From Dictyostelium discoideum (lineage: Eukaryota): a stretch of DNA of 64,000 bases. The notes beneath the pieces were generated by a model. The model was not told the DNA's origin. It ran no database searches and was given only the letters and a program-made list of their open reading frames with translations. Shown in pieces: positions 1-60,868 of the stretch. The stretch lies in assembly GCA_000004695.1 (NCBI GenBank), contig CM000150.2, positions 2,016,001 through 2,080,000 of the forward strand, written 5' to 3'. The translations under genes and the position numbers were made by a program. Each line of letters starts with the position of its first letter. Positions within the stretch are counted from its first letter, which is position 1.

Positions 1-102
1 TTATTATTATTATTTAAATGTGGGTCAACTATAATTAGTGTCTTAGTTCACTTATTTAATATTAACTTATTTTTGTGTCTTCGTTACATAAAAAAAAAAA
101 TG

Positions 103-134
<32 letters not shown>

Positions 135-924
135 AAAAAAAAAATAAAAAAAAAAAGAAAAATAAAAAAAAAAAGAAAAATAAAAAATAAAAAAAAAAAT
201 AAAAAAAATAAAAAAAAAATAAAAAAAAAAGAGGGTACCCCCCCCTAAAAAAAATAATAATTTTAATAATAATAATAATAATAATAAAAATGAAAATTAA
301 TATTTAAATAAAAAAAAGAGGGTACCCCCCTAAAAAATGTTGGAATTTAATTAAATTTATTTTTTATTTTTTTTATTTTTTAATTTTATTTTTTTTATTT
401 TTTAATTTAAAAAATGTTGATATAAAACAAAAAAATTTTTTCAAAAAAAACATTTCAAATTATTTTTAACAAATTATATTATTATACTTTAATGTATGTG
501 TACAATTTTAAAAATTTAAAATTTGTTCTATTTTTATCAATCATATCATGTATATTTATTAATTAAATCTCATATATTCTTATTCCCAGCAAATGACATC
601 AGGTGGAATCGTACAACCAGGCCAAAATCTCTCACAACGTCCAATAAACGGCCAATATGGCTGGGGACCAGCAGCAGGAAGTGCCGCAAATCCACGTGGC
701 GATCTCCGTGGTTACACTTACAATATTAGATAGTTTCGCTGTCTATTTCTGAATATTCAGAAATCTTTGTTTAATGCCAAAAATAGTAGATATCTATTAT
801 ATTTTCTCATTTTATAAATCTGATAAGATCTGTCTTAAATAAAAAAAATCAAATTTTTTTATAAATTAAAAAAAATCATTTCCGCAAATCCGCAAAAAAT
901 AGCGGGAATTAAATTATTTATTGT

Positions 925-1015
925 TTTTTAAATTGTTTTTTTTGCGTGATATGAAATGAACAGCAAATGAACAACGTGTGAGTTGTATTAGCTGATGGTA
1001 ATATTTATTTATTTT
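925..1015 (+). repeat. dispersed repeat; second inverted copy at ~46875-46965
   Basis: About 90 nt ('ttattgtttttta..gaaatgaacagcaaatgaacaacgtgtgagttgta..ctgatgg') is roughly 85% identical to the reverse complement of 46875-46965. The flanking sequences are unrelated. Confidence 0.5.
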
Positions 1016-1062
1016 TGTTTAATTAAAAAATTTTTTATAAAATAAAAAAAAAAAAAAATTTT

Positions 1063-1114
1063 AGTGAATTTTTACACTACGCATAAACAGTGTATTTTAG
1101 TGTAAAAATTCACT
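1063..1114. repeat. perfect 17-bp inverted repeat (hairpin or TIR-like) with an 18-nt spacer
   Basis: 1063-1079 'agtgaatttttacacta' is the exact reverse complement of 1098-1114 'tagtgtaaaaattcact'. It lies in non-AT-rich DNA beside the dispersed repeat at 925-1015. Confidence 0.55.
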
Positions 1115-1134
1115 GCCGTTTAGAAAGCGAAATT

Positions 1135-1584
1135 TCAAAAAAAATTCCCTACAACACACCTATCTATGGGTGGTATGACTTTTAATATGGTTACTTCAGC
1201 ATTTTCGAAATTAATATTTGAAATCATTTGATAGTAAAACGTTAGACAATTTGAATAGGTTTGATTGTTTATGATTTTCAAAACCGATGTATCAAAGTAA
1301 ACAATATCATACTCTGACGATGACAAAGCATTACATAAATCATTAGCTTCCACAGCCAATAGGTATTTTTGTAAAGTTTCAAACTGATCATTAGCAAATG
1401 GAAACTTTGAGTACATATCCTTTAGGAGAGCATTAGCTACAGTGGAATCAGTAGGTTCACCGAAAAATCCAACCTTTTGACCAATAAGGATTTCTTTTCT
1501 TTCATATGACTCTTTAATTCTATTTAAAATTGTTGTTTTTCCAGAACCAATTGGACCTGTAGTAATTTTAATCTTAGGAGGCAT
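1135..1584 (-). CDS. P-loop nucleoside/nucleotide-kinase-like protein (deoxynucleoside-kinase-like), 149 aa, possibly a truncated remnant
   Basis: A real ATG begins 'MPPKIKITTGPIGSGKTT' (Walker A). Further in there are 'GFFGEPTDS' (E-P) and 'YFDTSV' (ERS-like) motifs in the order seen in dNK/TK-type kinases. Codon usage is not typical of the host (CCT, GCT, TCG, CTA, ACG, GGG). Confidence 0.45.
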   Translation of the reverse strand: MPPKIKITTGPIGSGKTTILNRIKESYERKEILIGQKVGFFGEPTDSTVANALLKDMYSKFPFANDQFETLQKYLLAVEANDLCNALSSSEYDIVYFDTSVLKIINNQTYSNCLTFYYQMISNINFENAEVTILKVIPPIDRCVVGNFF

Positions 1585-1891
1585 TTTTTTTTTTCTTTTT
1601 TATTTATTTTTAGATATTATCTTGTTTTATTTTTTTTAAAAAAAAATAATAATTTATATCCATTTTTAAAAAAAACAAAAAAGCTTCCATGGTGTTCTTT
1701 TTTTTAAAAAAAGAATTCTATTAAAGAATAGTTATAAAAATAAAAAAAAAAAAAAAATAAGGGAAGAAAAAAAAAAAATCTTGGTTTTGATTTTCAAAAA
1801 AAAAAAAAAAAAAAAAAAAAAATTAAAAATTATAAAAAAAAAAAAAAAAAATATCTTCTTTTTTTTTAAAAAAAAAAAATAAAGAATAAAA

Positions 1892-2811
1892 ATGAACATT
1901 CATGTAAAATCAGTTTGTATTGATAATGGCATCATAATTTTTAAAAAACAAGATCAGGCATTTAATTATATGAATAGTGTCAGCTCTATTGAAAAATATT
2001 TTATATTTTCATATGAATTTGGCGATAAAGGTCAACGTGCTTTTTTAGTATCTCCAAGTATTGAAAAACTCTTCAAATGTATAATGAATACACCATTGAA
2101 TCTTCGTCATTATTATGAATTGATTCCACAATTTGAAAATTGTAATTTGTATTTAGATATTGATTTTAAGTTATCACCCGAGAAAGCAGAAGAAAATAAA
2201 AGAAACAAACAACTTTATAAAAACAATCTTATCGATAGAATTATAATCGACGAAGTAAAACCCATCCAAAGAAAACACATCCACAGGTCTCTGATGAAAT
2301 CGATAGCATTGAACCATTATTGCTCTTCTCCTATCAATACGATAAATATTCTTTACATTTACATTGGCCATTGAAAACCTTCCATTGGAAAGACAATGAA
2401 CATCTTGGAGAATGGGTAAAACAATTTGTTATTGAAAGATCCATCTATATACCAGAGCTCAACTATATCGATACGTCAGTTTATTCAAAATTCAGAAATT
2501 TTCGTCTAATGGGAAATAAAAAATTCAGTAAGAGTATTGAAACAATACTTAGAACAACATCTAAAGATAAAACCCTTGAAACCTTTGAAAAAACTATAAT
2601 AACATCATCGAATTTTCAAAAACAAAACGATACTGGTATCGATGAGAAAATCCTTTCATCTAATGGTTTCGAATCTTTAAAGAATACTGGTAGATCAACA
2701 GTTGATGTTAAGAGGAATCAACACCAACGAATTTCTTGTAATGATTTGATTTCATTGGAAGGTATGGGTCTCTCATTGGACGAATGTAATGATATTATAT
2801 TTTGTTTTTAA
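1892..2811 (+). pseudogene. archaeo-eukaryotic primase (AEP)-like gene split by a frameshift into two overlapping ORFs
   Basis: ORF 1892-2374 carries motif I 'NLYLDIDFK' (DxD). ORF 2320-2811, in a different frame, carries motif II-like 'YSLHLHWPL' (HxH) and motif III-like 'IDTSVYSKFRNFRLMGNKKFSK' (D..R..R..G..K). The frames overlap at 2239-2374, which is too short for an intron, so this is a frameshift. Confidence 0.35.
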
Positions 2812-3078
2812 TTTTTATAGAAGATTTTTTCAATTAAAATTCTATAAAAATAAAAAACAAAATAAAAAAAATAAATTTTATAAAAAAAAAAAAATGTTTG
2901 AAAATATAAAATCATTAATCTTCTCAGCAGTTTCTTTATTATTCTCTTTTTTGTATTATCATAGTGATTCAATTATATCTTTATTCACTCAAAATCTTGG
3001 TGAGGCAGTTTTGGAAACAATAGACGAAGTAATTCATAAACCCCAAACCTCATTACAACAAGAATCATTAAAATTACA

Positions 3079-3411
3079 ATGTACATGCAAACCATTATAA
3101 AACAATCGAAAAGTATCGATGAAGATTTGGTACAAGGAACTAAAAAATGGGAAGAAGTAAGAGAGAAGTATTCTTTTACTGGAAGTAGATTAGCTGCTGC
3201 CATTGGAATTGATCCATACACTTCACAACATGATTTATTTCATTTTTTATATACAATTGTTGGAATGTGCATTCATGATAAATATAATTTTGAAGATTTG
3301 TTCCAAAGAGTAGGCAGTGGCACATCATTTGCTGTTATCGAAGAATTCATGAGGGGTGATCTTTTTCCTGATATCAAAAATGGATGTAGTGAAGAATGTA
3401 AAAAAAAATGA
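3079..3411 (+). pseudogene. YqaJ/lambda-exonuclease-like nuclease, truncated N-terminal fragment
   Basis: 'QGTKKWEEVREKYSFTGSRLAAAIGIDPYTSQHDL' is about 95% identical to the N-terminus of the complete YqaJ-like ORF at 53694-54407. Nucleotide homology spans 3038-3237 only, after which the ORF diverges into unrelated sequence. Confidence 0.5.
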
Positions 3412-3849
3412 TACAATATACACAGGCCGTGTTTAAAAACTATATGAACTCTGTATGTTGGTACATAATGATGTTAATATACCAAAAAAGTTTGATGATA
3501 ATGGGCCCTCGTGCTTTTCAAATTATATCCATTCTTTGGTAGGTGGTTTCAAGGAAGAAAACTCTTGTTATTTCAACTATACGCCACGTCTCGAAAATAA
3601 TAGTAGTAAATTTCCAGATTATCCAAAAGAAAATTCTCAATAAAAATAAAAAGTTTATAATTTTTTTATTTATTTTGTTAATTTTTGTTTTTATTTTAAA
3701 TAAATAAATAATTTTAATAAATAATAATTAAAAAAAAAAAAATCATTGAAATCTAGTTGTAATTTTTATTTTATTTTATTTTTTTCTTTAAATTATTTTT
3801 CTTTAATCATTTTTATTTTGAATAATGATCTGAGACTACACGGGAAAAA

Positions 3850-4500
3850 AACCTAGTAAAATGTTAAAATATAATTAATTAAATTAAATTTTAATAAAAG
3901 TTTGTAATGCTATTTATAAATTAATAAAAATTATTAAAAAATAAGATTGATAGTTGCAAAAAAATAAAAAAAATAAAATTTATAAAAAAAAGAAACTTAT
4001 TATAAAAAAAAAATAGCATTTTTTATTAAAATTTAATTAATACTATAAAATAAGAAAATATATTAGAATTTTTAAATTTTATTAATTCGGGGTTATTTTT
4101 TTTTTTTAAAAATAATTATAATAATTATTAGAAAATAGGATATTTTATAAAAAAATAAGATTATTTATAAAAAATGTAACCTTTATTATTTTTTAATAAA
4201 ATATATTTAAAAAATAAGATAAATAATAATAAAAAAAAAATAATAAAATATATTAAAAATTGAAACATTATATAATTTTTAACATATTTTATTAAAATGT
4301 AATAAATACTAAAAAAATGAGATATTATATAAGAAGGTTATAAATTTTATTAATTATGGTTTTAATAATAAGATGTTTAAAAAATAATAATATAAATTAT
4401 AAATTGGAAAATTTTATAATATTCAACATATTTTATTAAATATAAGTAAAAAATAAGATAAAAAATAAATTTTATAAAAAAAAAAAATATATATATATTA
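3850..4500. repeat. degenerate tandem/subterminal-like AT-rich repeats
   Basis: Recurring ~100-130-bp units share 'aacatattttattaaa(a)t.taa' and 'aaaataagat(a/t)' motifs (for example 3930-3960, 4150-4230, 4265-4330, 4420-4470). Confidence 0.3.
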
Positions 4501-5479
4501 AATGAAACTTTTTATTATTTTAAAAAATATAGGAATTGAATTAATAAAAATAAGATATTATAAGAATAAATATGCGAAAACAAGAAAAATTTTATTAATT
4601 TTGAATTTGGTTTTTTTTTTATTTTTTTATTTTTTTTTTTTTTTTATCCATTTTCAAACTAAATCTGAATCGATTGTTTTTTTTTTTTTTTTTTTTTTTT
4701 TATCTGGATAAAAGTTGTTTGTATTTATTTAAAAAATTATTTGATTTTACTTTTTTTTTTTTTTTTTCATATTTTTTTTTTTTCATCATTTTTTTTTCAT
4801 TTTTTTTTCACCTTTTTTTTTACCAAAGTAAGTAAATTTTCATTATTTGTTTGAATAAAATCAGTAAACTAATTATTAAATTAGAATAAATAAAATTGAT
4901 GAAACAACTTATAAAAAAAAAAATAAAAATAATAAAAAAAAAAAAATAAAAAAAATTTAGAAAAATTAAAAAATATGTTTATTTTAAATATTCTTTATAT
5001 AGTATAATGTTTTAATTAATATCTTTTGGTATTATATGTCAACACATTTCATAGTATAAAATGAAAAAGAAAATTTATTTTCAGTTTTATTATCTTATTA
5101 CTCACAAATATAAATATGTTATAAATTAAATAAATATATAAATATATATTAATTAAAAGAAATAGATATTTAATTAAATTATATATAATTAAATAGAAAT
5201 AAAAATTAAATTGGTTATTCAAAAAATAAATAAAAAAAAATAGAATATAATAAAAAATAATTCTTTTAAGTCCTTCTATAGTATACCACTTCCTTTGCAT
5301 ATTTAAAACAAATAACCTCTTTAAAATTAAAATTCATATATTGAAATTCTTAAATTGTAATTTTAAATATTTGTTTAATGGATAACCGTAATAAATCTAT
5401 TTTCTATTAATTTTTAATTATTCTTTCAAAAAATAAAAAATTATAATTTTTTTATATTTTTTTTTTCAATTGGAAATTT

Positions 5480-5804
5480 TTTTTTTTTTGAATTGGATAA
5501 CGCAATTATTATTTGCTTCTCCTTGAGATGCTAGATCTCATTTTATTTTTTTTTTTTTTTTACAGGGTCTTTTTGATTAAAACATCTTTTTTGTCCAAAC
5601 TTTTTTCTAAATCTTTTTTTATTTTATCGTCTGGTTCGTGATTGATGTTTATGACGTATTTGAATTGTTTTTTTTTTTTTAATTGAGTTTTATCCACAAT
5701 TTCGCTTATTTTTTGTAGGCATTTGTGTTGCTTAATATTTGTGGTGTTGTTTGTGATTTTCATTTTATTTTCTTTCTATCTTTTTTATTTTACTGATTAA
5801 CTTG

Positions 5805-5862
<58 letters not shown>

Positions 5863-7300
5863 TTATAGAAAGTACTGAGTGAATTTATTGTATTTTCTGA
5901 GATGTTTAGGAAGTTCTATTGCGGGTGTTGATGATGATTTGTGACACCCCTTGTCCTGTTTTATCAATTGGTGCGTGGTGTGTTATTTTGTTTTTATATT
6001 GTTGATTTATTGAGTAAATTTTATTTGTTTTTATATTTGTTTCAGTTAGAAGTGCTGCGTCCAGCTTGTTGTTGTCTAAAACGGTGTTTATTATGCTGGC
6101 AGATTGGATGGTGTTGGATCCTTGGACGTTCCAAACACCTATTCTTATTGTGTTTTTCTTTATAGTTTTATTTGGGGTAGATTTTTATCTACCTTTTGAA
6201 GTTTCTGGTTTATTTTGTCTTCTAACTGATCTTTACTTTGTTCGTTGTGTTGTTGGTCTTGTGTGTTTGTGGGGTTTTTTGATTTATTGATTTGTTTTAG
6301 AATTTCCTTGTTGAAGTTGTCTATATCTTCATCCATTTTTGTTTTTATGCTTTTTTGTCCATATTCACCCAATTTTGGTTTGACTGGTGTTTTGTTGGTC
6401 TTGTTTGTTTTGTCTTGTTGTTTCTTTTTTGGTGTGTTTAACAATTTACTTGGTGAATCGATAATTTTCGATGGTGTACCATAGGTTGGGCTGAAACTCA
6501 TGATATGTTTTATTGGAGAGGAGAAGAACCATTGATTTGAAGGGATTGAAAGTGGGAATTCTATTTTTCTTATTGCATCAGTGTTTGGGCTGGTGAAGTC
6601 GAAGATATCATTTGCCTCTCTAAGTTTTTCTTCCGTTGTTAGTCCCTTTGTTTCGCCGTGTTGTTTTATTGGTGTATTGTATGGAGATGGTGGTTCGATA
6701 GGTTTTTCTGATTTTGTTTTAATTTCTTGATTGTTTATCGATTGTGTATTGATCTCATTCTCTATTCTTGTTAGTTCATCTACGTTTTCTAGTGATGCTT
6801 CTATTACCTTTTGAGCTGTATCATCTAGGGCCATAAATGTTTTATCATTAGATGAGGATGTGATTGGTGGGATAATGATTGTTCTTTTTCCTTGTTTTGG
6901 TATTTGTTCTGATGTAGATTGTGGTTGTTGTTCATCTGATTGTTTTTTATTTTTGTTTTCTTCTTGATTTTCTGGTAATGAGGTTTGATCTCTCCATCCT
7001 TTGTTGGAGTGTCCAATTAATGTTAGATTGTCTAGTTCAATGATAGTGTCAAATTCTTCTACGACTCTTTTCACTGTTTTGATAATTAGAGTTTCGCCTT
7101 TAATTTCTGATTTAATTAGTTTACATCCTTCATTTTCTATTACCCATTCTATTTCTGTGAGTGATTTATACCAATCAAAATCTGTATACATATTTTTTGG
7201 TCTTATAGTGGTTATAAATTGTCCTTTTAATTCTGCATCAAACATATTTACAAAATAGATTACTGTTTTCAATTGGAAATTTTTTTGCATATAATATTTT
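5480..7300 (-). mobile_element. TRE5-like non-LTR retrotransposon, internally deleted, head-to-head with tRNA-Arg
   Basis: On the minus strand there is a 376-aa ORF1 (7290-6160) followed by the start of an ORF2 AP-endonuclease ('IGVWNVQGSNTIQSASIINTVLDNNKLDAALLTETN', 6150-6040). It is then truncated, has an internal A-tract (5860-5810), and ends in a 3' module plus oligo(A) at 5550-5480. That 3' module matches the 3' end of the element at 49140-49205. Confidence 0.5.
6160..7290 (-). CDS. retrotransposon ORF1 protein (TRE5-like)
   Basis: 376-aa ORF from an ATG 21 bp from the tRNA-Arg 5' end, followed immediately by the APE-domain start of ORF2. Confidence 0.45.
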   Translation of the reverse strand: MQKNFQLKTVIYFVNMFDAELKGQFITTIRPKNMYTDFDWYKSLTEIEWVIENEGCKLIKSEIKGETLIIKTVKRVVEEFDTIIELDNLTLIGHSNKGWRDQTSLPENQEENKNKKQSDEQQPQSTSEQIPKQGKRTIIIPPITSSSNDKTFMALDDTAQKVIEASLENVDELTRIENEINTQSINNQEIKTKSEKPIEPPSPYNTPIKQHGETKGLTTEEKLREANDIFDFTSPNTDAIRKIEFPLSIPSNQWFFSSPIKHIMSFSPTYGTPSKIIDSPSKLLNTPKKKQQDKTNKTNKTPVKPKLGEYGQKSIKTKMDEDIDNFNKEILKQINKSKNPTNTQDQQHNEQSKDQLEDKINQKLQKVDKNLPQIKL

Positions 7301-7311
7301 ATATCATCAAA

Positions 7312-7385
7312 GGGACTATAGTTTAGTTGGATATAACGACCGGCTACGAACCGGTAGGTCTCAGGTTCGACCCCTGATGGTCTCG
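7312..7385 (+). tRNA. tRNA-Arg (anticodon ACG)
   Basis: Manual cloverleaf: acceptor GGGACTA/TGGTCTC with two G-U pairs, anticodon stem ACCGG/CCGGT with loop CTACGAA, T-arm TCAGG-TTCGACC-CCTGA, discriminator G. The architecture closely matches metazoan tRNA-Arg-ACG. Confidence 0.85.
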
Positions 7386-15643: not shown

Positions 15644-16762
<1,119 letters not shown>

Positions 16763-29305: not shown

Positions 29306-30922
29306 TCAACAACGTATTCAAAACACAGAAAATCATAATCAACAAAGTTTTAAAAAGAAAGAAAGTAGTAATATTAAAGATAATCGTCATAAATTACCAA
29401 GATTTAAAGATGAAAGTCATAATCCATTCAATAGAATTGATAAAGTTTATAAAGAAAATGAAAAACAAAATATTGAAAGATCAAGTAAAGTTAGAGAAGC
29501 AATGAAATTTAGTTGGGATAAATATAAAGAAAATGCATGGGGTCATGATGAGTTACATCCAGTTTCAAATACATGGAATGATTGGTTTGGCATGGGTTTA
29601 ACAATTGTTGATTCATTAGATACCTTATATTTAATGGGTTTAAAAAATGAATATAATGAAGGTAGAGAATGGCTTGAAAAGGAATTAAAACAAAAGAAAC
29701 CAACTGTAATTGAAATATAATTTAATATAATATATATAATTTATTAATAATTTATTAATAATTTATTTTATTTATTTATTTTAAAAAAAAGGGTTTAATG
29801 ATATCAGTTTTTGAAACTATTATTAGATTTTTAGGTCAATATTGTACAATGTATGATTTAACAGGTGATGAAATTTATAGAGAGAAAGGAAGAGAATTGG
29901 GTGATTTACTATTACATGCATTTCCAGAGGGTAAACCATTTCCACATACTTCAATTAATTTGGCCGATCATAGATCTACAACACAATCTTGGATGGGAGA
30001 ATGTGTAGTTCTTTCAGAGGTTGGTACTATCTTTTTAGAGTTTAATCATTTGTCAAAGATAACTGGTGATCCAAAGTATAAGGAATACTCTGATGGTGTA
30101 GTTGACGCATTGGCCGCTATGAAACCAACCATTAAAGGTTTGCTACCAATTTATGTCTCTATGGATGCCCAAAGATTCTGCAATAGTCGTGTCTCGGTTG
30201 GTGCAATGGGTGACTCCTACTATGAGTATCTCTTGAAAATGTGGATCTATCACGACGGTCGTGAAGAGAGATACAGTACCCTATTCCAAGAATCTGCAGA
30301 TGCAATCATTGAACATCTTTACAAAGTGTCGCCAAAGGGTGATGGGTATATCACAATTATGGACTACGACGTGCCAACCAACACACAAGAGCATCTAACT
30401 TGCTTTGCCGGCGGTATGTATGCATTGGCTGCTGTCTCAAATATTACTGGTGGTGATGTTGAAAAGGATAAACTCTATATGAAAGTTGGTGAAGAGGTAA
30501 CTAAAACTTGTACAAAGCTTTACTTAACCTCGGCCACCGGTCTAGGCCCAGAGACCGCTTACTTCAACCAAAATGGTGAAATTGAATTCTCTGGCCATTC
30601 AGCTGCCCCCCACTACATCCTTCGTCCTGAAACTGTTGAAAGTTTATTTATTCTCTATCGTCTAACTGGTGATACCATCTATCAAGACTGGGCTTGGCAA
30701 ATCTTTGAATCTATAAACTCTGTCTGTAGAACTAACAATGGCTTTGCTGGTGTTAAAGATGTCTCCAATATTCATACACAATTCGATGATAATCAACAAA
30801 GTTTCTTTATGGCTGAAACCTTAAAATATCTTTACCTAATCTTCCAACCTTCTTCAGTGATTCCTCTTAATAAATATGTTTTTAATACTGAAGCCCATCC
30901 TGTAAAAATTCAATATCAATAA
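28869..30922 (+). CDS. glycoside hydrolase family 47 alpha-1,2-mannosidase (type II membrane protein), 655 aa
   Basis: Model join(28869..29705,29792..30922) with an 86-nt phase-0 intron (GTAATT..aaaaaag). N-terminal TM 'FIVAMFASIFIISSLTFLLF', an N/H-rich (HNN)n stalk, then the GH47 catalytic domain ('SVFETIIRFLG', 'GAMGDSYYEYLLKMW', 'ETVESLFILYRLTGD', 'FFMAETLKYLYLIF'). Confidence 0.75.
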
Positions 30923-51639: not shown

Positions 51640-52130
51640 TAAAATTACTTGGATCTTTTGAAAGAGTTAGTTTTAAGTCTTTTGCTTTTTATATATTCTG
51701 GGCTGGCTAGTTTGAACCATTAAGTAAGGTCGAGTATGAAAGCTTTTCAACTTTCGACGGTTCATCTCTGTACAATTGGTCGCAGACCCAAGTCCAGATG
51801 TTGTGAGATATTAGTGCGATTATGTTTCTATATGCGAAGGATTTAGATAGGTCATAGTTTACACATTTATACCCCCATTCGAAGTATTCTTTATGGAACA
51901 CACCTTGCAAACTTGGGATATGAAAAGTTACAGAACTCTAACTACCAAAAGGAGAGCCCTTTAGCTGATGTATTTAATGATGTCTATTCACTCCACACCA
52001 TCTAAGGTTTGCATTGGTTACCTTTTTGTGTAAAGAAGATGCACATTCATAAGGTTATTACGGAAAACAGCATCTATCCACTTCAATATGAACAAAATGC
52101 GAATGGTGAAGGTGATACCGATGATGATGA
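51640..52130 (-). mobile_element. fragment of a second non-LTR retrotransposon family (ORF2 C-terminus plus 3' region)
   Basis: Non-AT-rich block. The ORF 51707-51910 'FAYRNIIALISHNIWTWVCDQLY' is homologous to the 'HAYWNIISLVIHQIWIWLCKSLF' segment of the TRE3-like ORF2, at roughly 50% identity. Confidence 0.4.
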
Positions 52131-52279
52131 CGATGAGGAGATGTTACATGATGAAGAATATAATAATTTTTAATTTTTTAAAAAATTAAAAAGGGGAAAA
52201 AAAAAATAATAAAAAAAAAAAAATAAAACCTTAATTGGTTTTGTTTATGTAATAATCTTTTAAAAAATATATTCTATTA

Positions 52280-52627
52280 TTATTTTTCTTCTTCTTTTGT
52301 TGGAATATCTGTTCTTTTTCGAGAACCAGGAAAATTAAGATCCAAAATATTGACTGTAAAGAGATCTTGAATATTTTTGTCTTGAACTAAATAATCCTCA
52401 CCACTTTGGTAGTGTAATACATCTCTGAATTGAAAAAGAGGTAAGGAACCATCTTCGTTAACTTTGAGTGATTGATAAAGTATTGATGCAGTTTTATACA
52501 TTTCAAGACTTTCTACTACTTCCTTGATACATTCTGCTGTACAATCTTTCCCAAATTCAAATTCCAATAAGTTATCATATTGAAAAAGTTTTTCAGTAAA
52601 ATCTGGGTGGTGGTGGTTACGGTTCAT
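52280..52627 (-). CDS. hypothetical protein, 115 aa
   Basis: ORF with a real ATG (MNRNHHHPDFTEKLFQYDNLLEFEFGKDCTAECIKEVVESLEMYK..). Codon usage is mixed and there is no confident family. Confidence 0.3.
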   Translation of the reverse strand: MNRNHHHPDFTEKLFQYDNLLEFEFGKDCTAECIKEVVESLEMYKTASILYQSLKVNEDGSLPLFQFRDVLHYQSGEDYLVQDKNIQDLFTVNILDLNFPGSRKRTDIPTKEEEK

Positions 52628-53167
52628 TTTTTTTTTCTCTGTGTCAAAAATGAAAATTATTTGTGTGAATAAAAAATAAAAAAAAAAAAAAAAAATTTTA
52701 AAAAAAAAAAAAATAAATAAAAAAAATAATAAAATAATAACAATGACAACTTAATTTTTTGAGTGAGAAATTATAAATAAATAATAAATAAATTTGTAAA
52801 TTAAAAAAAAAAAATAATAAATAAAAAAATTATTTTTTAATTTTTACCTAATTTACACAAAAACATTAATGTTTTTCTCACCATTTTATCTTTGTATAAA
52901 TTTTTTTTATTTTTTTATTTTATTATATTATACTTCATATAAATAACTATCTCCAAATGAAATTTTTATTAAAAATTAATTTATTGATCTTTTTTTTTTG
53001 TGAATTCCTGTAACTCACATCACTATGTTGGTATTATCGATGACAATTCTATAACTCCAAACATGCAATGGTTTAACGATATTATGTTCATTAGAAGAAA
53101 CGCCAATGGTGCCTGGCCTAGAGTTAATTCTTTTAATTGAAACGGGGTATACTTTGTTTTCGGGAAT

Positions 53168-53746
53168 ATGGCTCCTCATGGATTGACCTTGCTGTATATA
53201 GGTAAAGCATCCCATCAAGATGGGATGGGTTTGTACCACAGAGGTTACTCAGATATAGTTGGTCGCCCAAGGTTTTGGGGGACTCCAAATGCAAGACCAC
53301 TAGAAATGGCAAATGCCCAAATTTTAATGTATTATAGAGGTTTTGATGGTCCAGTTGCTGGTCATGCTGAGTGGTTCCTTTCAGTATTTGGGTGCCCAGA
53401 AAATAGTTTCAACGAGGGTGGTTTAAAGGAATCTCAATTTTGTTATGGTGCAGGTCAATGGAATTTTTTCCATGCAACTGCTCCCGCAGTTAATGTTTGC
53501 CAATATATTATAAATCAAGATCCATCCCCTGGTCTTTTTTTTAGATATCCAAACTATCCATCTGCTCCAAGTATTATAAGAAGAATTGTTGATTGTGAAA
53601 CTGAACGATTACTCGCTGAAGGTCTTTCACTTCAAGTTCCTGGTCTTCAAAATCAAGTGTTAAATCTTCAAAATCAAGTGGAAAATCTTCAAAATGCAAA
53701 CCAACTATTTGCAAACCCCAAACTTCATTACAACAAGAATCATTAA
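53168..53746 (+). CDS. GC-richer ORF of unknown function, 192 aa, next to the YqaJ-like gene; weak support
   Basis: ORF MAPHGLTLLYIGKASHQDGMGLYHRGYSDIVGRPRFWGTPNARPLEMANAQILMYYRGFDGPVAGHAEWF... ending in a Q/N-rich coiled-coil-like tail. Non-host codon usage (GGG, CGC, CCC, CTG). A 39-codon open segment upstream (53021-53137) is separated by one stop codon. Confidence 0.3.
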   Translation: MAPHGLTLLYIGKASHQDGMGLYHRGYSDIVGRPRFWGTPNARPLEMANAQILMYYRGFDGPVAGHAEWFLSVFGCPENSFNEGGLKESQFCYGAGQWNFFHATAPAVNVCQYIINQDPSPGLFFRYPNYPSAPSIIRRIVDCETERLLAEGLSLQVPGLQNQVLNLQNQVENLQNANQLFANPKLHYNKNH

Positions 53747-54407
53747 AATTACAATGTACATGCAAACCATTATAAAACAATCGAAAAGTATCGATGAAGA
53801 TTTGGTACAAGGAACTAAAAAATGGGAAGAAGCAAGAGAGAAGTATTCTTTAACTGGAAGTAGATTAGCTGCTGCAATTGGAATTGATCCATACACTTCA
53901 CAACATGATTTAAAATTAATATTAGCGAAAAAGAAAACCCCATTCTTTAGTGACTACTGTAAAAAGGCAATGGAACATGGTAAACACCAAGAACCAATAG
54001 CAAGAGAATTTTATTTTAATGAATTGGAGACTTCAATTATCGAAAAGGGTATCTTTCCATTGCCAGGCGACAAAAGAATTGGATGTTCTCCTGATGGGGT
54101 AATTTACACAACAGTACCTGGTAAAGATGGAGTTTTACAGCGTGAAGGAGTTATTGAAATAAAATGTCCACTATCTACCACGAACTTCAGTGGCCTAAAG
54201 AATGGTAGAAAACCTGATGCCTTAGCTAATGCTCAGAAAATACCTCTAGATTACATTCCACAAATATTTGCAAACATGGCATGTACTGGGGCACAATGGT
54301 GTGATTATATATGTTGGGTTCCAGGTGAGGTATACTTTTGTAGAAGGGTATTCTTTGATACAAATGTATTCGTTAGCAAAATTATTTATAGATACACCTT
54401 TAAATGA
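53694..54407 (+). CDS. YqaJ/lambda-exonuclease-like PD-(D/E)XK nuclease, complete; about 216 aa if started at the second Met (53754)
   Basis: 'WEEAREKYSLTGSRLAAAIGIDPYTSQHDL', 'HGKHQEPIAREFY', 'GCSPDGVIY', 'GVIEIKCP' and 'IPLDYIPQIFANMACTGAQWCDYICW' match the YqaJ viral-recombination nuclease domain in order and spacing. Non-host codon usage. Confidence 0.6.
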   Translation: MQTNYLQTPNFITTRIIKITMYMQTIIKQSKSIDEDLVQGTKKWEEAREKYSLTGSRLAAAIGIDPYTSQHDLKLILAKKKTPFFSDYCKKAMEHGKHQEPIAREFYFNELETSIIEKGIFPLPGDKRIGCSPDGVIYTTVPGKDGVLQREGVIEIKCPLSTTNFSGLKNGRKPDALANAQKIPLDYIPQIFANMACTGAQWCDYICWVPGEVYFCRRVFFDTNVFVSKIIYRYTFK

Positions 54408-54544
54408 AATACCTTAAAGAATGAAAAAACATTAATAATAAATACATTACTCTTACAGAAACTTAAAGTTTTAAATCCACACCTAAATATTCATGTACGA
54501 ACTAAATTATCATATAGAAAAAAAGTTATAAAAAAAAATAATAA

Positions 54545-55560
54545 AAAATTTCGTTGATTGGTGGGGTGTTAATGTTGTTTTTTGGTGGTTGATTGTTTTT
54601 GTTAATATTTAGGGTTTGTGAGAGCATTTTTTATAGTTGTTGCCATATCAGAATTTTTTGCATGTTGAATTTTGTGTTTAGTGACACTACGTGTTGCAGC
54701 TTTGATATATCTTGTGATACCAGATGGTTGTTCGATCTTTTGGTCTACAATGTTGTGTGTGTGATCAATTAGATGATATGTTATAATGTAGCTTTTAAAC
54801 GCAACAGCATATGAGTATGTGACAGTAAATGATTCAATTGATGTACAACTGGTGAATTTGGTGAGGTTGTTTATAATTGCATCATTTGCAAGTTTGGGTG
54901 AGTACGTTTGAATGAATGTTTTAATGATTGCATAATCATTTGATGATATTTCGAATCTATAGTTGAGTTTGTCGATATTTAGTGCAAGTTGGTTTTGAAG
55001 GTTGATTATTGAAGTTAATTTATCAACGTTGCAATTTACGAAGGCAGTTGCACTAATTATTTTAAATGCTGATGGCGACAGTATATCTTCGAAGAGTTTG
55101 TGAATGTTTTTGTGAATTTGTTGGATTCTTGTGTCATCTTTAGAGGCTAATTCTTCACGGATGTATGGTTGATTAAAGTAACACTTAATGTTGATGGTGT
55201 TATTGTTTTTTTCTAAGAAGGAGAGTGGTCTTGTGATTGATGGAGGTGCAATGATATCTAATTGATTATCAAGTCCTTTGTTAAGTGAGAATTTGTTTGT
55301 TGGGGTTTGTTTTTTAGGTGTGCCGATTTTTGCACTTTTGTTTTTTGTTGTTCAGGTTGTGGAGGTATTATTTGTATTGGTTGTGTCGTTATCTGTATGA
55401 TTTGACTGTAATTCAGTTGAGTGATCATCAGCCATTGTTGAAAAGTATATAGGACGATAGCCCTTGCTTTACTGAGCAAAAATAGGGTAAAATTAAGAGG
55501 AATGAATGTGGTGAAGACATAGCAGTGATTTATTTTTATATGAATAAATTCTTGTTTATT
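54545..55560 (-). mobile_element. TRE3-like element, 5' portion (5' UTR plus ORF1 start), in tandem downstream of the TRE3 copy at 55608-57235
   Basis: Minus-strand 5' UTR, then ATG at 55440 ('MADDHSTELQSNHTDN..'), and a GT-rich (plus) or CA-rich (minus) ORF1 with frameshifts, truncated at about 54545. Confidence 0.4.
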
Positions 55561-55607: not shown

Positions 55608-57235
55608 TGATATAAAAAAACTATTGTAGTATACAATTAGTATGTTTTTTTATTTATTTATTTTAGGTTTTTTAGTTTTTGTTAATTTAAAATGGTATGT
55701 TATTTTAGATTAGGTAATTAATAATTAATTGGTGGTGTAATTGTTGGAATTGGTTCATTTGTGTTTATGCTCCATTCTTTTTTAAATTTTTTGATGGTTT
55801 CGGACCATTGGGTTTCTTTTTGAGTTTTTGTGAGGTTGTTTTTAATTGAGTATTGGTTAAAGTTTGATAATGTTCTTGAATATTCCAATCTTATTAGCTT
55901 GTGCCATTTTGATTTTAATATATCATAATCTAGTGTTGTGTTGTTTATTTGGTTGTTCCAATTGTCAATTGATTGAGTTATATTGATGTCAAATAATGAT
56001 TTGCATAACCAGATCCATATTTGGTGAATAACTAATGAGATTATGTTCCAATATGCATGTGTTCTGACTAGATCAAGATTTGTGTTTATATAATTCCAGT
56101 TGGACCTGTATTTTTTATATTGTGCGTTTTCTGCAAAATGAAAATTAATATTGATAGTTGGATCTGGTTTAAATACTTTGTTGTTTGTTTGTGGTTTATA
56201 AATGTGTGTGTATAATTTTGTTGTTTGGTTTTTTGTTAGTGACCAGTTTTTGTTTCCATTGCAATTTTTATATATAAAATATTTTAATTTGTCGTGGTTT
56301 ATGAAGTTGATTGTGTGCTGACAATTGAAAAACAAATGACCATAGGGATCATTATTCATTTCATTGTTGCAAATGGGGCAAACTTTGTTGTGTAGATGAT
56401 TAATCGGAAGACATCTAGCATGGAATCTTTGCATTGTATCACGGCCTTTTGGATCTTTTAATTTTTGAATTTTGACAAAAAGTTGGTCGTATGTGTATTT
56501 CCATAATAGTTGTATTGATTGTTGGTGCGAAGTAAGAAGTAGATCTGAATATTTCTTGCCAATATAGTCTTTTGATTTACATTGGTGATTGTTGAGTATT
56601 GTCGAGTAGATTTCTTTGAGTGTTGGTGGTAGTGGAATATTATTTGTGGTTAATGTTTGAGAGGTTTGATTTTTTATTAATATTGGTTGTAGGATTTGAA
56701 CTTTATCTTTTAGATGTCCAATTTGAGTTGCATAGTTTTCCCATTCTTTTTTGATTTTTATAAGGTATGGAGAAGAGATTGATTTGTTGATGATTTGATC
56801 CATCCAACTTATCATGTATATTGAATTATTTGCAGATTTATGCATTTGTAAAAAACTGTATTTTTACAAATGCATAAATCTGTTGTATATCCAAATCTTT
56901 TGAGCAACTTGTCGTAATTGTATATTCCACATACCCCAACCACCTTCTTTTAATGGTTTTAATGATCTATCATAACACATCAAAGGTATTTTTGCACGTG
57001 AATGGATGGTTGATGTGTTATTTTCAATGGAATTGATATTGAGAGTTGGTGATTCAGAATTTGCGGGAGAATTCATAAACCATGAGATTAATTTATTAAT
57101 TTGAATTTCTTCATCTTTTGTAAATTCTTCAAGGTATGATAAATATGTTATTGGTGATAGTGAGTAGGTGTTTATGATGGTTGTTTTTGTTTTTAATGTT
57201 GTGCCACTAGTTTTCCATAGTACTATTATATATTA
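55608..57235 (-). mobile_element. TRE3-like non-LTR retrotransposon, 5'-truncated copy, downstream of tRNA-Val(UAC)
   Basis: ORF2 C-terminal 375-aa ORF (55718-56845), near-identical to 47551-48267 including the CCHC finger. It shares the 3' terminus 'gatataaa..aactattgtagtatacaattagtatg', with no long A-tail. The 5' end lies about 30-40 bp from the tRNA 3' end. Confidence 0.6.
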
Positions 57236-57264: not shown

Positions 57265-57338
57265 TGATCCGACCGAGGATCGAACTCGAGACCTGTTGCG
57301 TGTAAAGCAACCGTGATAACCGACTACACCATCCGACC
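57265..57338 (-). tRNA. tRNA-Val (anticodon UAC); one acceptor-stem mismatch
   Basis: Minus strand GGTCGGATGGTGTAGTCGGTTATCACGGTTGCTTTACACGCAACAGGTCTCGAGTTCGATCCTCGGTCGGATCA. Anticodon stem GTTGC/GCAAC with loop TTTACAC. The D-arm and 5' half are identical to tRNA-Val(AAC). There is a G5:G68 mispair in the acceptor stem. Confidence 0.6.
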
Positions 57339-59041: not shown

Positions 59042-59251
59042 TTTTTTATTTTTTTATTTTTAGATTTGTTTTTTTATTATTTTTTACAATATGAAATGAA
59101 AAAAAAAAAAAAAAAAAGTCAGAACACTTACAAAAATCTGTTTTTTTTATTTTTTTTATTTTTTTTTTTTTTTATTTTTTTTTTTTTTTTTCATTCGTTA
59201 AATTACAATAATACCTTTTTTATTATTTTTTTTTTTTTAAAATATTTAATA

Positions 59252-60868
59252 ATGAATTATTTAAATAAAATTAATAAAATTAATAATAAATTATTTTATA
59301 GTACAACAAGTAGTAGTAATGGAATTAAAAATGTTGTAATTAATAATAAAGATTATTTAAAAAGTTTAAAAACAAATGAAATTTGGGAATTAATAGTTGG
59401 TATTGAAGTGCATGCACAAACCAAAACTAAAGAGAAATTATTTTCAAATAGTTTAAATATTGGATCAATGGAAGGATTTAAAGCAAATTCACGTGTAAGT
59501 TTTGTAGATGCAGCATTTCCAGGTGCATTACCAGTATTAAATGATAAATGTGTTGAACAAGCCATTAAAACTGGATTATCAATTGGTGGAACCATTAATA
59601 GATATAGTTTTTTCGATCGTAAACATTACTTTTATCAAGATTTACCACAAGGTTATCAAATCACTCAATTAACCGAACCAATAGTTAAAGGTGGATCGAT
59701 CGAATTGGAATTAAGTGATGGTAGACAACACCAAATTCGTATATCACATATACAATTGGAACAAGATAGTGGTAAATCAATTCACGATTTACATCCAACC
59801 AAATCATTGGTTGATTTAAATCGTGCTGGTATCGGGTTAATGGAGATTGTATCACATGCAGATTTCACATCGAGTGAACAAGTTGGTTGTTATATTCAAA
59901 AACTTCAACATTTACTTAAACATATTGGTAGTTCAGATGCAAATATGCAATTTGGTGAAATGCGTTGCGATGTAAATATATCAGTTCATAAACCAAATAC
60001 TGAATTTGGTACACGTGTTGAATTAAAAAATATGATATCTGCTAAAGCAATAGTTTCAAGTATCGATTCTGAAGCAATTCGTCAAATTGACCTATTAGAA
60101 AATCAAAATAAAATTCAACGTGAAACTCGTGGTTTTAATCAAGAAACTGGTGAAACCTATCATTTACGTACAAAAGAAGATGAAGTCGATTATAGATTTT
60201 TCCCTGACCCTGATTTACCACCATTAATCATCTCTAGTGAAAGAATTGAAACAATTAAACAACAATTGGGTGAACTACCACAAGATATGAAAAAAAGATT
60301 AATCAAACAATATTCATTAACAAATTATGATGCAGAATTATTAATTCAAGATCAATCAATTGCAAAATTTTTTGAAAATTCAATTATATTTAATCAAAAT
60401 CATAATCAAAAACAAAGAGATATTAAAAAAATTTTAAACTTTTTATTACGTGATATTTTCTCTTGGTTAAATTCAAATAATATTCAAGATTTTAATTCAA
60501 TTATAAATGAAAATCAATTAAGTATTGAAAAGTTTACACAATTGTTAGATTTAATTGAACAAGGTTATATCTCAAGCAATATTGGTAAAACTATTCTTTT
60601 TCAAATTTTAAATGGTTCTGATAATAGATCACCAAAAGATTTAATAGATTCTCAAGGTTTATCTCAAATCTCTGATGATTCATTATTGGATCAATTGGTT
60701 CAACAATTGGTTGAAAATCATCCAAATGAAGTAACTGAATATCATCAAGGTAAACAAAGAGTTTATAAATTCTTTATGGGTGAAATTATGAAAAAAACTA
60801 AAGGTAGATCAAATCCTGAAATTGTTAATAATTTATTAAAAAAATATTTAGATTTAAAAAAAAAATAA
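59252..60868 (+). CDS. gatB: glutamyl-tRNA(Gln) amidotransferase subunit B (GatB/PET112, mitochondrial), 538 aa
   Basis: Single exon from the ATG at 59252. The upstream part of the track ORF is antisense of the neighbouring gene. 'WELIVGIEVHAQTKTKEKLFS', 'GYQITQLTEPIVKGGSIEL', 'QIRISHIQLEQDSGKS', 'DLNRAGIGLMEIVS' and a C-terminal GatB/YqeY domain. Confidence 0.8.
   Translation: MNYLNKINKINNKLFYSTTSSSNGIKNVVINNKDYLKSLKTNEIWELIVGIEVHAQTKTKEKLFSNSLNIGSMEGFKANSRVSFVDAAFPGALPVLNDKCVEQAIKTGLSIGGTINRYSFFDRKHYFYQDLPQGYQITQLTEPIVKGGSIELELSDGRQHQIRISHIQLEQDSGKSIHDLHPTKSLVDLNRAGIGLMEIVSHADFTSSEQVGCYIQKLQHLLKHIGSSDANMQFGEMRCDVNISVHKPNTEFGTRVELKNMISAKAIVSSIDSEAIRQIDLLENQNKIQRETRGFNQETGETYHLRTKEDEVDYRFFPDPDLPPLIISSERIETIKQQLGELPQDMKKRLIKQYSLTNYDAELLIQDQSIAKFFENSIIFNQNHNQKQRDIKKILNFLLRDIFSWLNSNNIQDFNSIINENQLSIEKFTQLLDLIEQGYISSNIGKTILFQILNGSDNRSPKDLIDSQGLSQISDDSLLDQLVQQLVENHPNEVTEYHQGKQRVYKFFMGEIMKKTKGRSNPEIVNNLLKKYLDLKKK

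Follow-up and report, generated by a model that had tools for sequence, protein, structure and literature searches.

A 64,000-nucleotide stretch of the Dictyostelium discoideum AX4 genome (GenBank assembly GCA_000004695.1, contig CM000150.2, positions 2,016,001 to 2,080,000; hereafter the window) carries near its left end three damaged genes, which resemble an archaeo-eukaryotic primase (AEP), a deoxynucleoside kinase (dNK) and a YqaJ-type exonuclease. Where did these genes come from? A preliminary description of the window had called all three degraded and proposed an endogenised fragment of a large DNA virus, a plasmid fragment or a new transposon family. In the present study, we found that the segment 1156-3836 (island 1) very probably represents the dead and rearranged remains of a double-stranded DNA virus that is endogenous in Dictyostelium, with a second remnant at 51880-54549 (island 2). 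The parent would be an element of about 40.4 kb with a capsid and packaging module of the Nucleocytoviricota type.

Identification of the Three Genes through Intact Copies

The three open reading frames (ORFs) of the preliminary description were present where it had placed them (dNK, 1135-1584 on the minus strand; AEP, 1892-2811; YqaJ, 3079-3237). An exact look-up identified the ORF 1892-2374 as DDB_G0269072 (XP_646915) of D. discoideum AX4 (most likely chromosome 1), which UniRef labels Q55EV5, "DNA-directed primase/polymerase protein". Profile searches with the window ORFs by themselves gave marginal matches. The YqaJ ORF slightly exceeded the gathering cut-off of PF09588 (23.4 bits against 22, E = 7.9e-5), with residues 23-56 matching profile positions 1-33 of 150. 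The dNK ORF scored 16.9 bits with PF01712 (E = 0.0056), which was under the cut-off of 27, and the AEP ORF matched AEP_C962R at E = 0.033. The domain calls became firm because near-identical intact copies, found at two loci designated L001 and L002, scored strongly. Window 1156-2797 was 93% identical to L001/L002 at the DNA level, and window 2820-3237 was 99% identical to L002 11180-11597.

The AEP fell into a cluster of 14 members at 90% identity from other Dictyostelium assemblies, which included intact 398-aa proteins and neighbouring 317-aa proteins. At the intact loci the order was dNK (minus), AEP (plus) and YqaJ (plus), with all reading frames open. The intact 263-aa dNK reached 45.2 bits with PF01712 (cut-off 27, E = 1.2e-11, profile positions 3-165 of 203), and a comparison with PDB sequences gave no match. 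The intact YqaJ protein covered the whole PF09588 profile (128 bits, E = 4.4e-37, positions 1-150 of 150) and matched the exonuclease 3syy at 8.7e-13 and Mimivirus R354 at 4e-5. The intact 398-aa AEP aligned with human PrimPol (5l2x, 7jk1) at E = 1.5e-12 over residues 16-179 and 186-224, and its motifs I-III stood opposite those of PrimPol (LYLDIDF/LYFDLEF, SLHLHW/SRHLIF and IDTSVYSKFRNFRL/VDLGVYTRNRNFRL). As read by eye, its C-terminus carried HYTKHCKISQRIH...YDCTDEEC, a candidate for a UL52-type zinc finger, in a segment that is deleted in the window at 2797/2820. The AEP call was made from sequence alignment; a structure model built on a shallow alignment had a predicted local distance difference test (pLDDT) score of 32 and was not used. 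These results indicated that the preliminary assignment of all three genes was correct.

Structure and Damage of Island 1

Four pieces, of which one was inverted, made up the mosaic of island 1, and three of them were 93-99% identical to parts of the element of about 40.4 kb (Table 1). Base-level alignment revealed one frameshift, three deletions and truncations in total, so that the degradation noted earlier could be mapped base by base. The dNK fragment, 82% identical to the intact 263-aa protein (tblastn), carried a 36-nt in-frame deletion at 1279/1280 and was cut at about 1153-1156, with the loss of the C-terminal third and its QRGR region. In the AEP gene, a 1-nt deletion at 2256/2257 produced the frameshift that divides the motifs present within 1892-2811, and about 272 nt were absent at 2797/2820, which removed about 97 C-terminal residues. 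The YqaJ homology ended exactly at 3237, leaving a fragment without the catalytic core. The inverted piece at 3234-3697 was 96.8% identical to positions 43104-42637 of the composite element (L009 4460-4914). On the viral genome its source was at a distance of about 31 kb and was inverted relative to the AEP, and the piece matched the 126-aa ORF of L009 in two frames (tblastn). The counterpart of the last piece, 3698-3836, lay in other copies between a 460-aa gene without an assigned function and the 3' end of the dNK gene. Thus damaged, no gene of island 1 can be functional. The same relic was found at 99.5% identity over 10.8 kb in a second D. discoideum strain (GCA_054883475.1, orthologous locus L014). 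Further relic pieces were observed to the left of the window start.

One alternative is that the ORFs are decayed host genes, namely a cellular PrimPol, a nucleoside kinase and an exonuclease. It would agree with the UniRef name of Q55EV5, with human PrimPol as the best solved relative and with a broadly host-like codon usage. On the last point the preliminary description, which had called the codon usage foreign to the host, was overstated: the GC content at third codon positions was 0.22 in the element vs 0.14 in the host ORFs of the window, but the relative synonymous codon usage was correlated at r = 0.95. The copy number and setting of the genes spoke against this alternative. At least seven near-identical AEP copies occurred in one assembly, each time beside the same viral neighbours, and the three genes were thus multi-copy rather than single-copy host genes, the case that the preliminary description had named as a refutation of its reading. 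In addition, the close relatives of three neighbours in the parent element (a helicase, a 463-aa protein and a capsid protein) were confined to Dictyostelium in a word-indexed search of 5.8 billion proteins, and the window copy was a mosaic of viral genome pieces that are not adjacent to each other. We consider a host origin scarcely credible.

The Parent Element Encodes a Giant-Virus-Type Capsid Protein

The intact element was assembled by walking outward from the AEP gene through overlapping loci of D. cf. discoideum (GCA_054859205.1). Two of its copies were 99.6% identical over 23 kb, and D. dimigraforme and another D. discoideum strain (GCA_054859385.1) carried related copies. Near-identical intact proviruses were present in several copies in wild Dictyostelium assemblies.

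One gene of the element encoded a 414-aa protein, the C-terminus of which resembled a capsid-protein motif. An exhaustive HMMER scan collected 40 relatives of about 400-430 aa, including a divergent paralog on the L011 contig, an Acytostelium protein and metagenome proteins. The family profile matched solved capsids, with 8rbs at 9.6e-25 and Paramecium bursaria chlorella virus 1 (PBCV-1) at 4e-21 to 7e-11, followed by an iridovirus (Singapore grouper iridovirus, SGIV), faustovirus and African swine fever virus p72. Pfam Capsid_N was detected in 21 of the 40 family members and Capsid_NCLDV in nine. The AlphaFold model of the protein had a pLDDT of 85.6 and a predicted template modelling (TM) score of 0.84. 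In Foldseek searches with this model, the top matches were all Nucleocytoviricota capsids (E about 1e-24 to 1e-15, TM about 0.7-0.79), the best being Emiliania huxleyi virus 201 (EhV-201), PBCV-1 and SGIV at E values of 5e-23 to 1e-20, and the viral and PDB libraries agreed. By profile and by fold alike, Nucleocytoviricota capsids ranked ahead of those of virophages and adomaviruses. Together, the profile matches and the predicted fold identified the 414-aa protein as a double-jelly-roll major capsid protein of the type found in nucleocytoplasmic large DNA viruses (NCLDV). This evidence, in turn, marks the parent element as a virus with a giant-virus-type capsid module.

Related capsid sequences were also observed elsewhere. 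The hypothetical 314-aa protein DDB_G0277467 of AX4 chromosome 2 matched a portion of the viral capsid protein at 95% identity, so that AX4 holds relics of the capsid gene outside the window as well. A metagenome contig of mriyavirus-like size (L012, ENA ERZ2485795 NODE_934, 36,420 bp) carried a capsid relative at 24% identity and a 1680-aa protein related to the 804-aa protein of the element. L012 could be a free-living relative.

Further Genes of the Element

The helicase of the element was a D5-type superfamily 3 (SF3) helicase, with matches to DUF5906 (6.5e-13), VapE-like proteins (1.5e-4) and PHROG primase-helicase families (1e-14). A packaging ATPase of the A32 type (Pox_A32, 29.6 bits, cut-off 22.8) and a VLTF3-like factor (Pox_VLTF3, 25.4 bits, cut-off 25) were also encoded, together with a GRF zinc-ribbon protein, several small membrane proteins and the 463-aa protein, which had tandem internal repeats and no Pfam match. 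The finding of the AEP, dNK and YqaJ genes side by side in an element of about 40 kb with capsid, A32, VLTF3 and D5-type helicase genes supported the earlier proposal of an endogenised fragment resembling large DNA viruses. Polymerase families were detected neither in precomputed Pfam tables nor in scans of the ORFs of the roughly 40-kb composite, methods whose sensitivity is limited for divergent proteins.

Two further genes gave candidates for DNA-processing enzymes. A 187-aa protein contained SNFxLTINT, GGRVHSHTxI and YIxKD, which were conserved between two families with 38% identity and resemble HUH endonuclease motifs. It had no Pfam or PHROG match, and its sole PDB match was a histone at a non-significant E value of 0.099. 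The adjoining gene encoded a 190-aa candidate for a RuvC-like Holliday-junction resolvase of the poxvirus A22 type that begins with MIIIGIDPGIVNFAY, with no match in Pfam or PHROG and a sole PDB match to S. pombe 1kcf at E = 0.18. A by-eye reading of a 232-aa and a 192-aa protein as GIY-YIG proteins found no profile support and is not claimed.

A family of small proteins of about 110-220 aa shared a cysteine-containing motif ("GCSEECKKK", "GCTGECKEK") and had no Pfam match. Paralogs were observed in the window at 3079-3411 and 52280-52627, in L009 at 4491-4871, 5060-5449 and 95-745, and in L001 at 6795-7265, and several of them cluster near the palindrome described below. Another family of such viruses, divergent from the first, was present on L011 (D. 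cf. discoideum JBTAPH010000006.1, 57,978 bp), with 30% identity to the first family in the capsid protein, 44% in VLTF3 and 37-38% in the HUH-like protein. The local order of genes near the capsid gene was the same in both. A Phage_integrase fragment of 150 aa near this second family was not counted as an integrase of the element. The DIRS retrotransposons of Dictyostelium encode recombinases of this type.

The gene content also bears on the possibility that the parent is a non-viral mobile element with replication genes on board, either an undescribed family of DNA transposons or part of a nuclear plasmid of Dictyostelium. Its several copies, its repeat-rich setting and the lack of a recognised integrase could be read in this way. 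However, the three genes were embedded in a unit with a confidently assigned capsid protein and a packaging ATPase. As judged by domains, no reverse transcriptase, transposase or tyrosine recombinase was found in 1156-3836 or in the 40-kb unit, in agreement with the earlier remark that the genes are foreign to the known Dictyostelium transposon families (TRE, DIRS, Skipper, DGLT, Tdd, DDT and thug). The nearby reverse transcriptase and integrase (rve) matches belonged to separate insertions of long terminal repeat (LTR) retrotransposons. The plasmid and transposon readings of the preliminary description were thus not supported by the gene content, and we regard a non-viral element as very improbable.

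Unit Length, Palindrome and Junctions

A 14-bp palindrome, CTCTTATATAAGAG, occurred once per unit, and its occurrences on the composite were about 40.4 kb apart. It was absent from the window. To the left of the palindrome in L001 lay the far end of the gene array, as in L009, indicating that units were joined head to tail. The palindrome was kept in the second family, the proteins of which are 26-45% identical to those of the first, and its conservation across such divergent families argues for a function. The gene segments around it were observed to vary in order and orientation between copies. In GCA_054859385.1 the order was circularly permuted (C-terminal part of the helicase, capsid region, palindrome, dNK-AEP-YqaJ, GRF gene), and an LTR retrotransposon interrupted this copy after the GRF gene. 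Because the copies were head-to-tail or permuted around the 14-bp palindrome, the replicating form was probably circular or concatemeric.

Two candidate host-virus junctions were withdrawn. The region of L009 below position 913, first taken as host sequence, turned out to be viral, and a duplicated fragment of the element adjoins L002 at its left edge. The reading of the palindrome as the terminus of the element was withdrawn along with them.

These results can be set against the idea that a true giant virus of more than 100 kb left large insertions, of which the unit of about 40 kb is just a part. Other amoebae, and algae as well, are known to contain insertions of giant viruses, the PrimPol, YqaJ, dNK, A32, VLTF3 and D5 helicase genes occur in giant viruses too, and both candidate host-virus junctions of the present element were withdrawn. 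However, the palindrome recurred at about 40.4 kb with a head-to-tail junction, several copies kept their gene order across a span of about 40 kb, and the permuted copy of the other strain closed the circle over the same junction. A DNA polymerase B, an RNA polymerase and a capping enzyme were not seen either. A larger parent is accordingly improbable, and the evidence favours a small virus with a unit of about 40.4 kb.

A Second Relic Island and the Setting in the Window

The segment 51880-54549 is a second relic island of the same virus, in which three accessory genes survive as fragments and a YqaJ gene is nearly full-length (Table 1). The ORF 53694-54407 matched PF09588 with 130 bits over profile positions 1-150 of 150, and the frame was lost near 54407. 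No Pfam match was obtained for the fragment of the 399/487-aa family at 52973-53728. The two islands share some sequence: window 53713-53912 (200 bp) was 98% identical to window 3038-3237. Host genes and retrotransposons, about 48 kb in all, separate island 1 from island 2.

Table 1. Coordinates of the viral relics, the left-flank insertion and host genes in the window, and of the 14-bp palindrome at other loci
Feature	Position	Strand	Remarks
Right-hand part of ~1.6-kb insertion, not viral	1-1156		153-nt imperfect terminal inverted repeats
dNK-like gene fragment	1153-1584	-	P-loop and about residues 1-156 of 263 kept
dNK-AEP intergenic region	1585-1891		genes divergent; conserved with the intact element, inside the 93% alignment
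PrimPol-type AEP pseudogene DDB_G0269072	1892-2797 (ORF span to 2811)	+	
AEP-YqaJ spacer, 68-aa upstream ORF or exon (2894-3100) and first ~53 YqaJ codons (3079-3237)	2820-3237	+	
Inverted piece: gene for a 126-aa cysteine-containing small protein	3234-3697	+	broken into several frames
Spacer-like piece	3698-3836		76-79% to L010 7266-7409, L008 288-171 and L005 6093-6210
Host gene: actin	15686-16759		
Host gene: GH47 mannosidase	29798-30919		
Fragment of 151/152-aa gene family	51880-52104	+	tblastn 62% to L001 1334-1702 and L010 1117-1596
Small cysteine-containing protein family member, 115 aa	52283-52651	-	tblastn 56-58% to L008 5104-5496 and L006 1160-1495; blastn 75-79%
N-terminal part of 399/487-aa family	52973-53728	+	tblastn 54% over 251 aa to L008 3478-4896; 38% to L001 2623-4098
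YqaJ exonuclease gene, nearly full-length	53713-54549	+	96.5% to L001 11396-12247
Host gene: GatB	59096-60865		
Palindrome CTCTTATATAAGAG	L001 6250; L009 917; L008 2495; L010 4971; L011 15868		

On its left side, island 1 was bounded by an insertion that is not viral. Window 994-1146 was the right arm of an inverted repeat with arms of 153 nt, and its left arm stood some 1.3 kb away, beyond the start of the window. In L014, where both arms were available (5654-5806 and 7115-7267, 87% complementary), dNK residues 154-166 resumed directly to the left of the left arm, which indicated that an inverted-repeat insertion of about 1.6 kb had split the dNK gene. The perfect 17-bp hairpin at 1063-1114 noted in the preliminary description was confirmed (1063-1079 / 1098-1114) and lay within the right repeat; each terminal inverted repeat of the insertion carries such a hairpin. 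The dispersed repeat noted there was also recovered (932-997 vs 46953-46887, 82% identity), as part of the insertion. The proposed degenerate tandem array at 3850-4500 was weak, since Tandem Repeats Finder gave short low-complexity arrays, as expected of AT-rich intergenic DNA. The earlier suggestion that these three features are the boundaries of the element was not supported: the viral homology spans 1156-3836, and its left edge is the inverted repeat of the separate insertion. Inside the insertion, the ORF 593-733 (DDB_G0269070) was multi-copy, with identical copies under four accessions.

The window as a whole was extremely AT-rich and contained three transfer RNA (tRNA) genes. A repeat search of the whole window returned low-complexity noise only, and unfiltered blastn was equally uninformative. 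The ORF 6160-7290 (minus strand, no Pfam match), which is DDB_G0269076 and belongs to a family with many AX4 members, adjoins tRNA-Arg at 7312-7385. Likewise, the ORF 55718-56845 (minus strand, no Pfam match) lies near tRNA-Val at 57265-57338. Judged by their position, these two ORFs give the picture expected of tRNA-targeting TRE retrotransposons.

Proposed Life Cycle and Nature of the Virus

A tentative life cycle can be drawn from the gene content. Because no DNA or RNA polymerase was detected, the virus probably replicates and is transcribed in the nucleus by host polymerases. By analogy with the mriyaviruses, the PrimPol would prime DNA synthesis and the SF3 helicase would unwind the DNA, while the 187-aa HUH-like candidate may nick DNA for rolling-circle replication. 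The YqaJ exonuclease, possibly with the RuvC-like protein, would process recombination or replication intermediates or concatemers. The kinase would supply deoxynucleoside triphosphate pools, and the A32 ATPase would pack the genomes into icosahedral capsids. The AX4 copy would have been broken after its integration: the dNK gene was split by the inverted-repeat insertion of 1.6 kb, and the copy then suffered deletions, an inversion and a frameshift.

Intact capsid-encoding copies that are up to 99.6% identical in wild chromosomes indicate a recent or still active virus, which suggests that D. discoideum has, or recently had, a native virus. A stronger version of this view is possible but doubtful at present. 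It holds that a virus of about 40 kb, a small relative of giant viruses and the first native to social amoebae, is active today in wild strains and integrates into their chromosomes, while AX4 keeps dead relics only. Such a virus would have no recognisable integrase, and its entry, exit or rearrangement might proceed via CTCTTATATAAGAG, perhaps cut by the HUH-like endonuclease.

Several points weigh against a mriyavirus-like endogenous virus as the parent. The placement among the mriyaviruses follows from size and gene content and not from a phylogeny, and the nearest relatives of the capsid protein beyond the dictyostelids are metagenome proteins at about 20-28% identity. The unit of 40.4 kb was pieced together from overlapping copies with 97-99% identity to each other and not read through in a single stretch. 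No true host-virus junction was found among the two candidates inspected, and no integrase was recognised among the element genes. The HUH and RuvC calls are motif calls without Pfam, PHROG or significant PDB sequence support, and the absence of polymerases comes from Pfam-level scans of very divergent proteins.

A different parent can be considered, namely a polinton-like virus, or another small double-jelly-roll lineage, that shares just the capsid module with giant viruses and stands outside the mriyavirus/Nucleocytoviricota branch. According to a 2026 preprint, viruses of 15-45 kb whose capsid modules are NCLDV-like form a continuum, and mriyavirus core genes are present in some of them; a length of about 40 kb lies within the size range of polinton-like viruses. 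Single-protein scans of IMG/VR found no relatives, named ones included. However, the VLTF3 and D5-type helicase genes, both above Pfam cut-offs, are of the Nucleocytoviricota type, the best capsid matches by profile and by fold were all from Nucleocytoviricota, and the Pfam tables and scans contained no protein-primed polymerase, retroviral-type integrase or adenovirus-type protease. We regard a parent of this kind as unlikely, although it deserves more weight than a giant-virus, mobile-element or host-gene origin. The parent element resembles a small, mriyavirus-like virus related to Nucleocytoviricota, with its class membership unproven.

These findings call for a correction of the annotation: neither Q55EV5 (DDB_G0269072) nor DDB_G0277467, listed as a hypothetical protein, is a host gene, and both are relics of the virus. 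D. discoideum is a major model organism, and the AX4 fragment matters mainly as a marker of viral history. We know of no natural virus in use for this species. In the searchable literature D. discoideum appeared only as a "potential" giant-virus host, and full-text literature searches gave no description of such an element in dictyostelids. If the virus is active, it would give the small relatives of giant viruses a tractable pair of host and virus in which their replication and integration could be studied. What is new is the presence of a small giant-virus relative in an experimentally important host; the kind itself is known from algae, where endogenous small relatives of giant viruses have already been described.

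Comparison with Known Systems

Polintons/Mavericks and polinton-like viruses resemble the element in being integrated, in their size of 15-40 kb and in encoding a double-jelly-roll capsid protein and an A32-like ATPase. In some polinton-like viruses, AEP primase-helicases take the place of the polymerase (2026 preprint). In contrast, neither a protein-primed polymerase B nor an integrase of the retroviral type nor an adenoviral protease was found in the element, VLTF3 is present, and the capsid protein is closest to those of Nucleocytoviricota. Judged from Pfam tables and scans, the element lacks the genes that define polintons and Mavericks and would fall outside them.

Among individual enzymes, human PrimPol (5l2x, 7jk1) shares with the element AEP the aligned DxD/E, SxH and hD..VY..RNFRL motifs, and a Cys/His cluster stands at the C-terminus of the intact copy. 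Unlike human PrimPol, the element AEP is viral and multi-copy, and the similarity is limited to about 200 residues. The intact YqaJ protein shares the full-length PF09588 domain with Mimivirus R354 and with lambda-type/YqaJ exonucleases (5yeu, 3syy), whereas island 1 keeps just the first 33 or so profile positions, ahead of the catalytic core.

The endogenous giant-virus elements of Acanthamoeba and green algae likewise place hallmark genes in host chromosomes, show decay and are interrupted by host transposons. They usually span tens to hundreds of kilobases and derive from polymerase-encoding viruses, whereas the present element is about 40 kb long, repeated and self-closing. To our knowledge, a family B DNA polymerase is universal in Nucleocytoviricota outside the mriyaviruses; Pfam-level scans revealed none in the Dictyostelium element.

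The mriyaviruses (Yaravirus and the Pleurochrysis endemic or "dwarf" viruses) have genomes of 35-45 kb with an NCLDV-type capsid protein, A32, VLTF3, RuvC, a helicase and an HUH endonuclease and without polymerases, and rolling-circle replication by the HUH protein has been proposed for them (Yutin et al. 2024, PMC11253617). That article names YqaJ once and thymidine kinase never, and it mentions neither Dictyostelium nor integration; a 2026 preprint describes mriyaviruses as having no integration genes. The Dictyostelium element differs from Mriyaviricetes in four respects. Its primase stands alone as a PrimPol-type protein, which is rich in Cys and His toward the C-terminus, instead of being an N-terminal domain of the helicase, it has YqaJ and dNK genes, it is integrated in chromosomes, and it occurs in several copies. 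On the other side, its size of about 40.4 kb falls within the 35-45 kb of mriyaviruses, and both have a double-jelly-roll capsid protein, A32, VLTF3 and an SF3 helicase associated with a primase. Mriyaviruses are without both kinds of polymerase, and none was detected in the element. The small protein with three HUH-like motifs and the adjoining RuvC-like candidate, both recognised in the element by their motifs, would add to this resemblance. Finally, the isolated member Yaravirus brasiliensis infects Acanthamoeba, which, like Dictyostelium, is an amoebozoan.

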